Assembly (NCBI RefSeq): GCF_058153355.1
Contig: NZ_CM177019.1
Strand: one strand, 5' to 3'
DNA length: 64,000 bases
Part shown: piece by piece, positions 3,263 to 48,701 of the stretch
Layout: each line of letters opens with the position of its first letter
Position numbering within the stretch: the stretch's first letter is position 1
The notes under the pieces: generated by a model
Database searches by the model: none
Seen by the model: only the letters and a program-made list of their open reading frames with translations
What the model was told of the DNA's origin: nothing
Made by a program: the position numbers and the translations under genes

Positions 3263-4027
3263 TCAGAGTCGCTGTTTTTCAGCGATATGGTGCTGACAAG
3301 CGGTGATAAAGCCCTCGAACAATATACGCGAAAGCGCGTATTCGCTACTGTTCCATTCCGGGTGCCACTGTACGCCCAGCGCAAAAGGATGATTGATGAC
3401 GCTAACCGCCTCAACTAAGCCATCCGGCGAGCGGGCTTCAACACGCAACCGTGAGCTAACGACCTTCGCCCCTTGTCCATGCAGAGAGTTTACCCAAAAG
3501 TTGCTACATTCAGGTAACAGTGCAGACAGCAATCCCCCCTCTTCAACCTGAACTTCATGCGACGGTGCATATTGCTGTTCCACCGGCAGTTCGGGATCTT
3601 CCCGATGTTCCAGCAATTCAGGCTGTTCGCACAGCTTGCGATGCAACGAACCACCGGTTGCCACCACCAGTTCCTGTAAACCCCGGCAGATGGCGAAAAT
3701 GGGGATGCGCCTTTCGAGTGCGGCATTAATTAACGCCATGCTCAGAAGATCACGCCCGGGATCGGCGTCAGGCTCATCGCCGTTTTCACCATATAGGTGC
3801 GGCTGCACATTGCTGGGACTACCAGGAAGATAAATACCATCGAGTTTCGGCAAAAGTTGTTCAAGTAATGACGGTTCCGCCAGCGCATGTGGCAGCGCAA
3901 TTGGCAAGCCGCCTGCGTGGATGATGGCATTCAGGTACTTTTCTTGCAGAGTCTGGGTCGCATGACCCTTAAGCCTGTTCCTGCACATTACGACACCGAT
4001 AACCGGATTGTTCATTATATTTTCCAT
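3263..4027 (-). CDS. puuD: gamma-glutamyl-GABA hydrolase (class I glutamine amidotransferase-like)
   Basis: ORF 3263..4039; start taken at MENIMNNPVIGVVM; synteny. Confidence 0.88.
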   Translation of the reverse strand: MENIMNNPVIGVVMCRNRLKGHATQTLQEKYLNAIIHAGGLPIALPHALAEPSLLEQLLPKLDGIYLPGSPSNVQPHLYGENGDEPDADPGRDLLSMALINAALERRIPIFAICRGLQELVVATGGSLHRKLCEQPELLEHREDPELPVEQQYAPSHEVQVEEGGLLSALLPECSNFWVNSLHGQGAKVVSSRLRVEARSPDGLVEAVSVINHPFALGVQWHPEWNSSEYALSRILFEGFITACQHHIAEKQRL

Positions 4028-44073: not shown

Positions 44074-44660
44074 GTGATGAACGCTACCAACAGCGTCAGC
44101 AGCGTGTAAAAGATAAAGTGGATGCCCGTGTGGCCCAGGCCCAGGATGAACGCGGTATTATCATCGTCTTTACCGGCAATGGAAAAGGCAAAACCACCGC
44201 AGCATTTGGTACGGCAACACGCGCAGTTGGTCACGGAAAAAAAGTGGGCGTCGTGCAGTTTATTAAAGGCACCTGGCCTAATGGCGAACGAAATCTGCTG
44301 GAACCACACGGCGTTGAATTTCAGGTGATGGCAACGGGCTTTACCTGGGATACGCAAAACCGCGAATCTGATACCGCGGCCTGCCGTGAAGTCTGGCAAC
44401 ATGCCAAACGAATGCTGGCCGATCCTTCACTGGATATGGTTTTGCTCGATGAGCTGACTTGTATGGTGGCGTATGACTATTTGCCACTGGAAGAAGTGGT
44501 GCAGGCGTTAAATGAACGTCCACATCAACAGACGGTGATTATCACGGGGCGTGGTTGTCATCGGGATATTCTTGAACTGGCGGATACGGTAAGTGAATTA
44601 CGCCCCGTCAAACATGCGTTTGATGCTGGTGTTAAGGCGCAAATCGGGATTGATTATTAA
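44070..44660 (+). CDS. btuR: cob(I)alamin adenosyltransferase
   Basis: 196 aa; P-loop GNGKGKTTAAFG; overlaps the yciK stop. Confidence 0.92.
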   Translation: MSDERYQQRQQRVKDKVDARVAQAQDERGIIIVFTGNGKGKTTAAFGTATRAVGHGKKVGVVQFIKGTWPNGERNLLEPHGVEFQVMATGFTWDTQNRESDTAACREVWQHAKRMLADPSLDMVLLDELTCMVAYDYLPLEEVVQALNERPHQQTVIITGRGCHRDILELADTVSELRPVKHAFDAGVKAQIGIDY

Positions 44661-44666
44661 GTGAAA

Positions 44667-44700
44667 GCACCTCAAAAGTTCGCCTCTTGAGGTGCTAATT
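44667..44700 (+). terminator. intrinsic terminator after btuR
   Basis: gcacctcaa-loop-ttgaggtgc then taatttta. Confidence 0.7.
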
Positions 44701-44716
44701 TTAGATACTGAATGGC

Positions 44717-45025
44717 TTAATTAGCCACGGCAAAATTAAGAAGAGCTTGAATTTTATTCAAGTGTGCGGGATATTCCATGTCATTATCCGCATTGACGTC
44801 TTCAATAAACAGTATTAATTCAGTGATCAAATCATTAGCATCTTCATAACTAATACCAGTCAGTTCTGGTGACGTTTGCGAGCCATAATTAATTGTCAGA
44901 TTATTCATTACCGACAAAACCAGAATAAAATATTTGTGACATATATCGCAAGTTGTTCGGTTTCCTAAGGCATAGTACAGCATATTGAGCAATGCCAGTA
45001 TTCGTCGATTTTGCACATCGTTCAT
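44717..45025 (-). CDS. hypothetical 102 aa protein, no signal peptide, no recognisable domain; partner of the upstream lipoprotein
   Basis: ORF with AGGAGG RBS (ttataggaggtcatt-ATG) that overlaps the lipoprotein TAG stop; AT-rich. Confidence 0.7.
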   Translation of the reverse strand: MNDVQNRRILALLNMLYYALGNRTTCDICHKYFILVLSVMNNLTINYGSQTSPELTGISYEDANDLITELILFIEDVNADNDMEYPAHLNKIQALLNFAVAN

Positions 45026-45034
45026 AATGACCTC

Positions 45035-46057
45035 CTATAACATAACTCCGCTGGCAATAAGAAGTTTTGCCAGCTCCTCTGACGCCTGTAGACCACTAAT
45101 AACTTGAGAACGCAGGATCTCATTCCTACGCTCTAAATCCGCTTTAGAAAGAGATTTATTAGCGTATAAATCTTGTAGATGATTTCCTTTATCCATGAAG
45201 GCATTAATAGCTTGTATTGCTGGAGCCGCCGGATCAGATGAACGCAATCTGCTTTCATTAAGATTAATTACTGCACTCAAAAATTCCTGTCTACTCTTTA
45301 ATGTTTTAAATTCTATGTTTTTAGTATTTGCTCGGGCCTTATTATAGTAATAAAAATTATTGCTGATGTTCGCAAAATTATTCCAATCCATTTGCTGCTG
45401 TTTCGTTGCTATATCATCGAGTAAATCTTGTAAATTTCTTTGAAGTCGTGGCCAGTCACTACCTACCGTTTTACCAACATTTTCTGATTTAATCTTCTCT
45501 TTATATAATCCATTGAAATATTGAACTAAATCTTTAACAGCTACAGCTGACTTAGTCAGTTCTTCACCTTCTGAAAGGCCAAGTAGTTTTTGGGCGTTGT
45601 TTGCATGATCGAGCGCCTGATTAAGTAATATAATTTGTTTACTATCGTCAACATCCATATCCACCGTCAACAACTCCACATAGGAGCTCATACTGTTAAC
45701 GACCTCAAGTGAAGCCAGTAGCTTTTGTTTTTCTGTGGTTGCCAATTGAACTTTAGTAACGTCTTTATACGATGTTTTGTCCCCTTTCTCTGATTGCATA
45801 CATAAGGACTCTTTATTAGTATTATTTTCCATAATCGTTTCATAATCAGGTCGCAATGCACAATCCGGATTAGTCGCATAAAAATTAACAAGGAAGTTTT
45901 CACGAGAAGCATAGTATTGTTTAAAGAAACTTGCATTCGCCGCAACCGCCTTGTTACCCGCAGTAATAACAGTTTCAGCTTGTTCATTCTTCAATGCTTC
46001 GGTTGCACAACCTGAAAGCATTAACAGCGATAGAAATAATCCACTATATCTAATCAT
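45035..46057 (-). CDS. hypothetical 340 aa lipoprotein, Asn/Lys/Gln/Leu-rich, unknown function
   Basis: Signal peptide with lipobox MIRYSGLFLSLLMLSGC; GAGGTG RBS; strongly AT-rich. Confidence 0.75.
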   Translation of the reverse strand: MIRYSGLFLSLLMLSGCATEALKNEQAETVITAGNKAVAANASFFKQYYASRENFLVNFYATNPDCALRPDYETIMENNTNKESLCMQSEKGDKTSYKDVTKVQLATTEKQKLLASLEVVNSMSSYVELLTVDMDVDDSKQIILLNQALDHANNAQKLLGLSEGEELTKSAVAVKDLVQYFNGLYKEKIKSENVGKTVGSDWPRLQRNLQDLLDDIATKQQQMDWNNFANISNNFYYYNKARANTKNIEFKTLKSRQEFLSAVINLNESRLRSSDPAAPAIQAINAFMDKGNHLQDLYANKSLSKADLERRNEILRSQVISGLQASEELAKLLIASGVML

Positions 46058-46197
46058 AACCCACCTCTTGACGTTGAGTTTATCTCAGATAATTAAATAG
46101 TAATGTGGCTATTCCCTGGCATTATTCATAAGCAAGTATGAAATTAAATTAAAATACTGCGACTATTTATCATGCTTCAAATGAAGAAAAGGCCCCG

Positions 46198-46217
46198 CAG
46201 GGCCTTTATTTAATACT
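46198..46217 (-). terminator. rluB intrinsic terminator
   Basis: aaaggccc-cgca-gggccttt; on the minus strand followed by ttttcttcattt; 10 bp after the rluB stop. Confidence 0.7.
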
Positions 46218-46226
46218 TAACTTAAA

Positions 46227-47102
46227 TTAACCGTTATTATTACGTCCACCAGAACGACGACCGCCGCTGACCTGGCTGTGACGTTTCACCGCACGACGAA
46301 TTTGATTCGCCTTCATACGACGACGGTCTTTTTCTACAGCAACTTTAGAGCTGGTTTCTGGCGGTAGTTCCACCAGCTCACGCAGATAGTTAGTCTGGGC
46401 AAGATCCAACTCAGTCCAGCCACCGCGTGGCAGACCTTTCGGCAGTGGGATATCACCGTAACGAACGCGGATCAGACGGCTCACCTGCACACCAACCGCT
46501 TCCCAAAGACGACGTACTTCACGGTTACGGCCTTCGGTCAAAGTAACGTTGTACCACTGGTTGATCCCTTCGCCGCCGCTGAACTTAATGGTTTTAAAGG
46601 CTGCCGGACCATCTTCCAGCTGCACGCCACGACTCAAATCACGCAGTTTCGCGTCGTCAACCTGACCAAATACACGCACCGCATATTCACGTTCAACTTC
46701 ACGGCTTGGATGCATTAAACGGTTTGCCAGTTCACCGTCGGTGGTGAACAGCAGCAGACCACAGGTGTTAACGTCCAGACGACCTACGGCAATCCAGCGT
46801 GCGCCACGCAGCTTTGGCAGACGGTCAAATACCGTTGGACGCCCTTCCGGATCGTTACGGGTACACAACTCACCTTCCGGTTTGTAATAGGCCAGAACGC
46901 GACAAATTTGTTCAGCGGACTCACGTACCGAAATCAGGTGACCATCGATACGGATTTTCAATCCAGGGGTAATTTCAACACGATCGCCGAGTTTAGCAAT
47001 TTTGCCATCAACACTCACACGTCCGGCTTCAATAATAGATTCGATTTCACGGCGAGAACCGTGGCCGGCACGCGCCAGCACTTTCTGTAGCTTTTCGCTC
47101 AT
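46227..47102 (-). CDS. rluB: 23S rRNA pseudouridine synthase B
   Basis: 291 aa; N-terminal S4 domain ([21 protein letters not shown]), RsuA-type catalytic core, basic C-tail. Confidence 0.93.
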
Positions 47103-47202
47103 AGAGCTTCCTTTTGGTGTCGCCTTCCCAGGCGTCGAACAGGAGAATCAATGGCGCAGTAGAGCGCCATTTTAAGGCCGCGTAGTATACAGAGTTAAGC
47201 AC

Positions 47203-47823
47203 TTATAAAAAAGGCTTCACATCACCTACGCCTTCACGCAATACGACTGGCGTATCATCGGTGAGATCAATAACCGTTGTCGGTTTCTGCCCGAGATAGC
47301 CGCCGTGAATAATCAAATCCACCTGTTTTTCCAGACGGTCTTTAATTTCTTCCGGATCAGACTCGGTAAATTCGCTGCCTGGTAGCATCAGTGATGTGGA
47401 AAGCATCGGTTCGCCCAATGCTTCAAGCAACGCCTGCGCAATCGGGTTAGAAGGCACACGCATACCGATGGTTTTGCGTTTTTCCTGCAACAGACGGCGT
47501 GGCACTTCCTTCGTCCCCTTCAGGATGAAAGTGTAGTTACCCGGCGTATTGTTTTTCATCAAACGAAACGCAACGTTATCGACAAATGAATAGGTCGAGA
47601 GTTCAGAAAGATCGCGACACATCAGGGTAAAGTTGTGACCGTCCGGCAGCTGGCGAATACGACAAATACGCTCCATGGCGTTTTTATCTTCAATTTTACA
47701 GCCGAGCGCATAGCCGGAATCAGTTGGATAAACAATCACCCCGCCTTTACGCACGATCTCCACCGCCTGGTTGATCAGACGTTGCTGCGGGTTATCAGGA
47801 TGAATATAAAAAAACTGGCTCAT
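47203..47823 (-). CDS. yciO: Sua5/YciO/YrdC-family protein
   Basis: ORF 47203..47859; start at MSQFFYIHPDNPQ gives 206 aa. Confidence 0.88.
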   Translation of the reverse strand: MSQFFYIHPDNPQQRLINQAVEIVRKGGVIVYPTDSGYALGCKIEDKNAMERICRIRQLPDGHNFTLMCRDLSELSTYSFVDNVAFRLMKNNTPGNYTFILKGTKEVPRRLLQEKRKTIGMRVPSNPIAQALLEALGEPMLSTSLMLPGSEFTESDPEEIKDRLEKQVDLIIHGGYLGQKPTTVIDLTDDTPVVLREGVGDVKPFL

Positions 47824-48701
47824 AATTCCCTCTCTGTGGTGTTCTGCGGCTGTTCCCATAGCTGCCAGACGCCTTCAACGCCTGCGGGCAGCCAGAGTTT
47901 ACGACCCAGTTCGATCCACGGACATGGCTGATGAAAATCAGATCCTTGTGATGCCCATAAATGATGCTGACGCGCAAGCGTCGCCAGCTGGGTGCGTTCA
48001 TTGGGCGATTGCTGGCATTGCGCGACTTCCATCGCGTCGCCGTGGTGTTCGGCAAAATGCGCAACCAATCTTTTCAGCCATTTAGCACTAAGATTGTACC
48101 GCCCAGGATGAGCAAGCACCGCCTTACCGCCAGAATGATGAATGACATCAATAGCTTGTTCTATTGTACACCACTGTGGCGGAACGTATCCGGTTTTCCC
48201 GCGCGCCAGATATTTTTTAAAGATATCCGCCATTGAACTGGCTTTGCCACATTCAACCAAGAAACGAGCAAAATGACCGCGCGTCACCGCACCGCCCTGC
48301 GCCAGTCGTTGCGCGCCTTCCAGCGCCCCAAGTATTTGTGCTTTTTCAAGTCTTTCGGCAATTAACTTCGCCCGCTGATTGCGCCGTTCTGTCTGCTGCG
48401 CGAGGAACTCACACATTAGCGGATGAGTAATATCAATATTCAGCCCGACAATATGAATTTCATGATTTTCCCAGACGGTGGATATTTCCACGCCAGGAAT
48501 AAGATTCAGTGCCAGTCCTGAACGTGAAATTTCTTCTCTTGCTGGCGCGATTGCCGCTGTGGTGTCATGGTCGGTGATCGCCAGGGTGCCGACGCGCATC
48601 TCGACTGCACGGTGCACCAATGCTTCTGGCGTCAGGCAGCCATCGGAAGCTGTGGTATGGCTGTGCAGGTCATAAATCACTGCGTAATTCGTGTCGCTCA
48701 A
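47820..48701 (-). CDS. trpH: PHP-domain phosphoesterase (RNase AM)
   Basis: ORF 47820..48782; likely TTG start at 48701 giving 293 aa (MSDTNYAVIYDLHSHTTASDG); start codon uncertain. Confidence 0.8.
   Translation of the reverse strand: MSDTNYAVIYDLHSHTTASDGCLTPEALVHRAVEMRVGTLAITDHDTTAAIAPAREEISRSGLALNLIPGVEISTVWENHEIHIVGLNIDITHPLMCEFLAQQTERRNQRAKLIAERLEKAQILGALEGAQRLAQGGAVTRGHFARFLVECGKASSMADIFKKYLARGKTGYVPPQWCTIEQAIDVIHHSGGKAVLAHPGRYNLSAKWLKRLVAHFAEHHGDAMEVAQCQQSPNERTQLATLARQHHLWASQGSDFHQPCPWIELGRKLWLPAGVEGVWQLWEQPQNTTEREL

Follow-up and report, generated by a model that had tools for sequence, protein, structure and literature searches.

A strain-variable pair of lipoprotein and small acidic protein genes at the rluB-btuR site of Escherichia: a candidate envelope conflict module with divergent alleles

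We examined a stretch of 64,000 nucleotides (nt) of contig NZ_CM177019.1 (RefSeq assembly GCF_058153355.1; hereafter, the window) and focused on a two-gene cassette flanked by the core genes rluB and btuR. A previous sequence-only reading of this DNA had described it as a lipoprotein gene with a small partner gene, horizontally acquired and inserted between two terminators. Both open reading frames (ORFs) were recovered from the ORF list exactly as claimed and both lie on the minus strand: positions 45035–46057 encode a lipoprotein precursor of 340 amino acids (aa), and positions 44717–45025 encode an acidic protein of 102 aa (isoelectric point 4.4) without a signal peptide. The striking AT-richness was also recovered: the windowed G+C content (GC) was 0.31–0.42 over positions 44650–46300, versus approximately 0.48–0.57 in the flanks. 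At the level of genes, the lipoprotein gene and the small gene showed a GC of 0.368 and 0.356, respectively, versus 0.51–0.53 in rluB, btuR and yciK, and a GC at third codon positions (GC3) of 0.30 and 0.34, versus 0.46–0.53 in the same three genes. Asn, Lys and Gln together made up 23.5% of the mature lipoprotein and 12–18% of the neighbouring proteins, which agrees with the residue bias described before. The two genes are separated by 9 nt. At their junction (45031–45037, minus strand) the TAG stop codon of the first gene (45037–45035) overlaps the AGGAGG ribosome-binding site of the second (45036–45031), which ends 5 nt ahead of the ATG (45025–45023); the stop codon thus sits within the ribosome-binding site, as had been noted, and the overlap can be read directly in the sequence.

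Hairpins are present at both ends of the cassette, as the sequence-only reading had proposed, but the one belonging to rluB was found at 46188–46207 (minus strand; AAAGGCCCTGCGGGGCCTTT followed by a T-run), about 10 nt away from the 46198–46217 given earlier. This hairpin, detected by a terminator scan and as an inverted repeat, forms the upstream boundary of the cassette; it is kept in the second E. coli allele (B, see below) and in Citrobacter, and it is absent from the empty site of the K-12 type. Between it and the lipoprotein gene lies an AT-rich region (46058–46187, minus strand) with a GAGGTG ribosome-binding site at 46062–46067; the blocks TAGTCGCAG and TTTCATACTTGCT(T/C)ATGAA of the upstream region are common to the cassette and the Citrobacter locus. 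At the other end, the same two methods detected a hairpin between the small gene and btuR (44666–44696; 13-nt arms with 92% complementarity), which is probably a bidirectional terminator serving both genes. We found no direct or inverted repeats, att-like sites or mobility genes flanking the cassette, no phage genes near this copy, and no secretion or exchange machinery in its vicinity.

The cassette was detected in 1234 out of 5426 complete E. coli genomes (23%), a frequency that excludes its universal presence in the genus and makes it a strain-variable unit. All matches but one were chromosomal, and every inspected E. coli copy lay between rluB and cobO/btuR. Plasmid matches proved to be mis-assembled pieces of chromosome. 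K-12 and many other strains have convergent rluB and btuR genes only 39 bp from each other, separated by one unrelated hairpin, which agrees with the near-adjacent, convergent arrangement given for K-12 in the sequence-only reading. The E. coli copies form at least two allele groups: the window-type allele (A) was present in 775 genomes with 95–99.8% identity, including sequence type 131 (ST131) and many human clinical isolates, while the second group comprised 459 genomes with about 74% DNA identity (at the protein level, the lipoproteins are 65% and the partners 72% identical). The second group holds sub-variants, and 34 genomes carried mosaics. We also found inactivated copies, with a frameshift in strain JNE21-009 and an insertion of the insertion sequence (IS) IS1 in MSB1_4I. 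Many copies of the lipoprotein in the databases are labelled partial and end at the edges of contigs of about 100 kb; together with the complete genome interrupted by IS1, these suggest recurrent IS insertion or assembly breaks in the AT-rich lipoprotein gene.

The difference between the two allele groups is confined to a tract with sharp edges (44695–45870) that comprises the small gene as well as all but the 5' fifth of the lipoprotein gene. Sliding identity over 60 nt ranged from 0.38 to 0.88 within the tract and from 0.93 to 1.00 outside it, and megablast placed the breakpoint between alleles at position 45842. The first 60 codons of the lipoprotein gene, its upstream region and the hairpin on the btuR side are 93–100% identical between groups: the proportion of synonymous differences (pS) was 0 in codons 1–45 and 0.05 in codons 31–60, and the hairpin at 44666–44696 was 93% identical, versus only 52–70% in the adjoining coding DNA. 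Synonymous sites within the tract are near saturation, while the flanking genes show a synonymous divergence (dS) of 0.04–0.15; the alleles therefore predate their carrier genomes by far. Over the last ~60 nt of btuR (44575–44634) the identity between allele backgrounds falls to 0.88, and btuR has a higher dS (0.145) than yciK (0.04), so the exchanged tract may sometimes extend into btuR.

We then considered the two products. The N-terminus of the larger protein (MIRYSGLFLSLLMLSGC) consists of a signal peptide (codons 1–16) followed by the lipobox LSGC, with Cys17 as the lipobox cysteine and Ala at position +2, and it fits the lipobox pattern of the PROSITE PS51257 type, which asks for a positively charged n-region, a hydrophobic h-region and [LVI][ASTVI][GAS]C with its Cys among the first 35 residues. 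A pattern of this style fits the window protein and 18 out of 20 family members, while the other two members keep L-[TS]-G-C; the lipobox Cys was invariant in both the 20-member and the 15-member family alignments. None of the 20 members had Asp at +2 or a transmembrane segment. In E. coli, Asp at +2 holds a lipoprotein in the inner membrane; since the +2 residue here is Ala, sorting to the outer membrane is predicted. The lipoprotein assignment made earlier is thus upheld, with a lipobox Cys present in 20 out of 20 members and no sign that a functional signal peptide is lacking, and a protein of the Sec/Lgt/Lsp type, with predicted acylation and outer-membrane location, is strongly supported. 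As regards function, only C17, C66, C86 and Y126 were invariant across the 20 aligned members. Such a set of three Cys and one Tyr carries no catalytic signature, in line with the earlier failure to recognise a catalytic motif, and points to a periplasmic or envelope protein without enzymatic activity that is stabilised by a disulfide.

Variation within the lipoprotein gene is concentrated in one stretch (45722–45877, minus strand; codons ~61–112), which includes the segment between Cys66 and Cys86 as well as an indel between alleles. The sliding proportion of nonsynonymous differences (pN) reached 0.36–0.44 there versus about 0.2 elsewhere in the gene, and the alignments showed indels and little conservation between the two cysteines. 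The mature part, of about 320 aa, probably contains one periplasmic Cys66-Cys86 disulfide that staples a hypervariable loop. Over the whole lipoprotein gene, pN was 0.21 and pS 0.56 between allele groups; the small gene gave a pN of 0.16 and a pS of 0.82. Given these ratios (pN 0.16–0.21 versus pS 0.56–0.82) and the confident fold of the small protein, both ORFs correspond to real genes, and the substitution pattern indicates that both are under purifying selection.

The small protein was modelled by AlphaFold2 as a four-helix bundle (predicted local distance difference test, pLDDT, 84.5; predicted template modelling score, pTM, 0.79), and a fold search returned generic four-helix-bundle matches only. 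Four-helix bundles are also known from executioner or adaptor domains (MLKL 4HB, plant CC/CC-R, HeLo-like) and from export chaperones (FliT/FliS). Sequence and family searches agree with the earlier statement that this product has no signal peptide and no recognisable domain. Residues Cys26, Cys29, His30 and His88 were invariant only within the Escherichia/Citrobacter group. The CxxCH-plus-His cluster is absent from the distant partners, no lineage carries a signal peptide, and the model places the N-terminal helix confidently within the bundle; we therefore ruled out a haem c protein, and a metal site common to the whole family is unlikely on the same alignments. A Tat-exported protein was rejected as well, given that a signal peptide was found in no lineage. 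One variant of the partner, from E. coli GPEC606 (WP_001000713.1; locus L032, 1501–1809), bears the RefSeq name 'amino acid kinase family protein'; neither Pfam nor NCBIfam supported this name, the protein is far too short for it, and the label is probably an annotation error. Taken together, the anatomy of a lipobox lipoprotein translationally coupled to a small, acidic, cytoplasmic four-helix protein is strongly supported by the sequences and the model.

The pair is not restricted to E. coli. At the same rluB-btuR site we identified it in E. albertii (84–87% identity), E. whittamii (65–76%) and Citrobacter sp. ANG330 (55–63%), and an AlphaFold database (AFDB) entry points to C. amalonaticus as a further carrier. 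The Citrobacter locus has the rluB terminator as well as the upstream blocks in common with the Escherichia cassette, and its genes have a GC3 of 0.39–0.49, shifted towards their host, versus 0.30–0.34 in the window pair. In E. albertii NBRC 107761 the lipoprotein match falls into two segments (locus L023, ~3624–3626) with a one-base change of frame near codon 243, which is either a frameshifted pseudogene of the type strain or an error in the draft sequence. A search for the close family among 100,044 species representatives matched only two Escherichia species, E. albertii and E. whittamii.

These comparisons bear on the proposal of a horizontally acquired, discrete insertion. The part that stands is the AT-rich, foreign-looking and discrete two-gene unit; a recent gain was not demonstrated. 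Recent insertion is not supported, in view of the occupied site in E. albertii, E. whittamii and Citrobacter and of allele groups that are far older than their flanks. With the same site occupied in other taxa, a shared upstream region, no flanking repeats and saturated alleles, the sequence comparisons describe an old, site-fixed but patchy polymorphic locus, whose history would involve loss in many lineages, homologous recombination through the conserved flanks, or both. The empty site of K-12 may reflect either direction of change, a gain in the carriers or a loss in K-12.

An exhaustive profile search of 1.84 billion representatives gave 54 matches to the wider family of the lipoprotein. 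About 30 of them were full-length (324–357 aa), with 16–26% identity to the window protein, and the most distant lipoprotein group was still recognised as homologous by hhalign (99.7% probability over 318 columns). We inspected 11 loci, counting the Escherichia/Citrobacter site as one; these loci are not all independent, and two further contigs ended too soon. In 10 out of the 11 loci, a gene of 96–108 aa was located 2–25 nt downstream of the lipoprotein homologue, while the remaining locus had a gene of 269 aa in the position of the partner. The distant partners are highly diverged, mostly acidic and without a signal peptide or transmembrane segment. By sequence and gene order, the two genes have thus stayed together in proteobacterial lineages that are far apart, and in unrelated genomic contexts.

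The neighbours of the distant homologues are not conserved, and they are uninformative. In Buttiauxella agrestis, the pair was located between gpS and gpV of a P2-like prophage, with a GC of 0.34–0.40 versus 0.55–0.61 around it. The gpS-gpV interval is one of three recognised moron regions of P2-like phages (PMC6823313). A role of this pair as spanin or lysis protein was rejected, as the prophage already encodes its own LysC. Another homologous pair shares its island with VapBC, Fic and a Y1 transposase, and one adjoins a DDE transposase fragment; homologues were also present in environmental metagenomes and in high-GC lineages, whose members are unlikely to be host-associated. At locus L013 (4108–6960) the pair is preceded, 41 nt upstream, by a phospholipase-C-type phosphoesterase (PF04185, 509 aa) and a protein of 413 aa without assigned function; this layout recalls operons of an effector with a lipoprotein immunity protein and was not seen at other loci. 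The module consists of the pair alone; it is mobile but only rarely carried by phages.

Family databases did not place either protein. Pfam gave no match for the two window proteins or any of 35 family members; NCBIfam gave nothing usable for the window and distant members, the lipoprotein matching Lpp/OprI only at the level of the signal peptide (13.9 bits versus a cutoff of 43), and the housekeeping-family match that would speak for an ordinary gene was found in neither database. Searches of PDB sequence profiles returned no match for either protein family. No homology to the known exclusion or serum-resistance lipoproteins Cor, Llp, Bor/Iss and TraT was detected with PHROGs, Pfam and NCBIfam. 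The literature, when searched by accession and by locus name, yielded no paper on either gene.

The functions suggested in the sequence-only reading, exclusion or defence, a toxin-immunity-like pair or a surface factor, stay speculative, and our results add context to them. The reading that we tentatively favour, although we rate it at clearly less than an even chance, is that of a conflict-type envelope module acting in exclusion or protection, with the small, acidic four-helix protein as its cytoplasmic partner. An accessory or conflict flavour comes from the AT-rich composition (also inside the prophage), the 23% carriage, the pseudogenised copies, the saturated alleles, the pN peak in the Cys-Cys loop, the pair in the P2-like moron slot and the one in the VapBC/Fic/transposase island. 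We favour exclusion or protection by analogy with moron lipoproteins such as Cor and Bor. In such a module, the envelope-located lipoprotein would obstruct or fill the route by which an external agent enters; this agent might be a phage, or perhaps a colicin or an effector delivered by contact. Diversifying pressure would act on the variable loop. The partner protein would bind the helical lipoprotein precursor in the cytoplasm before export, either as a dedicated holder or chaperone or as a stoichiometric regulator. The broader version of this proposal, a widely scattered two-component envelope system for phage exclusion or interbacterial conflict, whose ancient alleles are kept by balancing selection at a fixed site and which occasionally travels as prophage cargo, is possible but more doubtful.

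Several observations weigh against exclusion. We found no homologues of the pair in 50,697 phage genomes and 2.9 million IMG/VR contigs, so the link to phages comes from the single Buttiauxella prophage, and other homologous pairs lie among housekeeping genes. PHROGs contained no family at E<=0.01 for the window or the distant members, and PADLOC-DB v2.0.0 gave no match for either window protein and only chance-level matches for distant members and partners (E 0.003 or worse). A promoter scan of the minus strand found no strong sigma-70 consensus upstream of the lipoprotein gene. The model of the lipoprotein, all-helical with one short hairpin, is unreliable (pLDDT 48.6, from a shallow alignment of 10 sequences). 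Finally, an exclusion model does not explain why an exported protein should have a cytoplasmic partner, and the role given above to that partner is pure inference.

The closest analogy is with morons, which are defined by a deviant GC and by their own promoter and terminator, with the outer-membrane lipoproteins Cor and Bor among the examples (PMC3594210). The deviant GC is seen both in the window (0.36–0.37 versus 0.51–0.53) and in the Buttiauxella prophage. As for the transcription signals, a terminator hairpin is present at 44666–44696, and a strong promoter was not recognised, as noted above. Cor, Llp and Bor are single genes for proteins of roughly 60–100 aa; Llp of T5 is likewise an outer-membrane lipoprotein of a phage moron, and lipoproteins of the Cor/Llp type block the entry route that the phage uses. 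Our cassette resembles Cor of phi80, N15 and HK022, Llp of T5 and Bor of lambda as a compact unit of deviant GC with its own terminator and a lipobox protein, and a homologous pair occupies a recognised moron slot. Unlike them, its lipoprotein is 340 aa long, helical and paired with a cytoplasmic partner, it has no sequence relationship to Cor, Llp or Bor, and the window copy lies outside any prophage or phage genome, with only the distant Buttiauxella homologue in a prophage. The Buttiauxella pair sits exactly between gpS and gpV, where P2 has the nonessential Orf30 and R18C a different uncharacterised ORF; in contrast to Orf30, which is on the opposite strand, the Buttiauxella cargo is co-oriented with the late genes, and it also differs in length. 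We conclude that the cassette is a real, well-delimited two-gene module, a moron-like accessory in general idea, and a member of no described family.

Among the other explanations, a toxin-immunity-like pair fares best, although we consider it rather unlikely. Here, the lipoprotein, or its variable C-terminal four-fifths, would be harmful or membrane-active and displayed on the outer membrane or on vesicles, and the acidic partner would neutralise it. A large exported protein followed by a small, acidic, signal-less and tightly coupled partner has the expected layout, the two genes remain adjacent in 10 of the 11 inspected loci, and old alleles are maintained side by side. The unit that varies between alleles is also suggestive, as it joins the C-terminal ~270 aa of the lipoprotein with the partner, while the first 60 codons and the outer boundaries are common. 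In myxobacteria, SitA and SitI are a lipoprotein toxin and its cytoplasmic immunity protein, and the Im proteins are four-helix colicin immunity proteins. The cassette is similar to SitA/SitI and colicin/Im in pairing a lipobox protein with a small, acidic cytoplasmic partner and in having a conserved N-terminus with a remainder that varies jointly with the partner. However, no toxin domain or catalytic motif was recognised in it, nor were an escort or delivery system and secretion or exchange machinery nearby; SitA depends on TraAB outer-membrane exchange, which is not known in Escherichia. Moreover, the variable parts of the alleles are homologous over their full length (55–66% identity) instead of being unrelated C-terminal domains that were swapped, as in polymorphic toxins, and after export the mature lipoprotein and the partner would be in separate compartments. 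Across the family, conservation is highest in the 5' end that the alleles share, which makes this end a natural crossover point. Ordinary recombination can also account for a C-terminal part and partner that vary together.

A host-interaction or surface fitness factor, acting in serum or complement resistance in the manner of Bor, Iss and TraT or in adhesion, with a loop shaped by immune pressure, seems improbable to us. Carriers of allele A include ST131 and numerous clinical isolates from humans, surface-antigen loci show a similar combination of a hypervariable disulfide loop and old alleles, and phage-borne outer-membrane lipoproteins with such roles are known, for example Bor (PMC3594210). 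On the other hand, the lipoprotein has no homology to Bor, Iss or TraT, its distant homologues come from environmental metagenomes and from lineages of high GC that are unlikely to be host-associated, surface exposure was not predicted by any analysis that we ran, and the conserved cytoplasmic partner is unexplained by this role as well.

An ordinary envelope protein outside any conflict has a similarly low chance of being correct. The lipoprotein would then be a helical protein of the periplasm, binding or sensor-like, with a dedicated cytoplasmic helper for its folding or export; it would be ancestral at this site to Escherichia and Citrobacter, and many E. coli lineages would simply have lost it. 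The site occupied in E. albertii, E. whittamii and Citrobacter, the Citrobacter GC3 expected of long residence, the purifying selection on both genes, the homologues among housekeeping genes and the weak resemblance of the low-confidence model to periplasmic helical sensor domains (beyond the family, one PilJ/NarX-like entry and several methyl-accepting chemotaxis protein and histidine kinase sensors in AFDB) have to be set against a persistently deviant GC, a close family in only two of the 100,044 species representatives, 77% of E. coli without the cassette and some copies inactivated, occurrences in a prophage moron slot and in a toxin-antitoxin/transposase island, an allele divergence far above that of the flanks, and fold matches that stem from a model too poor to trust.

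Two further observations concern the surroundings of the cassette. The gene yciQ (DUF2207, ~631 aa), which lies between rluB and yciO in K-12 and other inspected E. coli loci, is absent from the window, where a spacer (47103–47202) separates rluB (46227–47102) from yciO (47203–47859). The closest strain, 2017-02-2CC, likewise lacks it, as do E. albertii and Citrobacter, but E. whittamii apparently has it, judging from a gap of 2.1 kb; yciQ is thus a second presence/absence polymorphism directly beside the cassette. In addition, an Rfam scan of the region gave only sub-threshold chance matches. One of these, to the small RNA STnc130 (46081–46216, plus strand; 24.3 bits versus a gathering score of 55, E 0.93), lies opposite the upstream region of the cassette and is most likely due to chance.

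Both proteins are annotated only as hypothetical, yet roughly one in four complete E. coli genomes, those of ST131 among them, has the pair, and the age of its alleles far exceeds that of the genome around them, a kind of pattern known from surface-antigen and conflict loci. The family has no coverage in Pfam, NCBIfam, PHROGs, PADLOC or the PDB, and the pair is a cheap and well-defined candidate for phage, colicin and competition assays. Even without a role in exclusion or defence, it represents a new family of lipoproteins that has yet to be named; if it turned out to be a new module of this kind, it would help to explain differences in phage susceptibility between strains of clinically important lineages.

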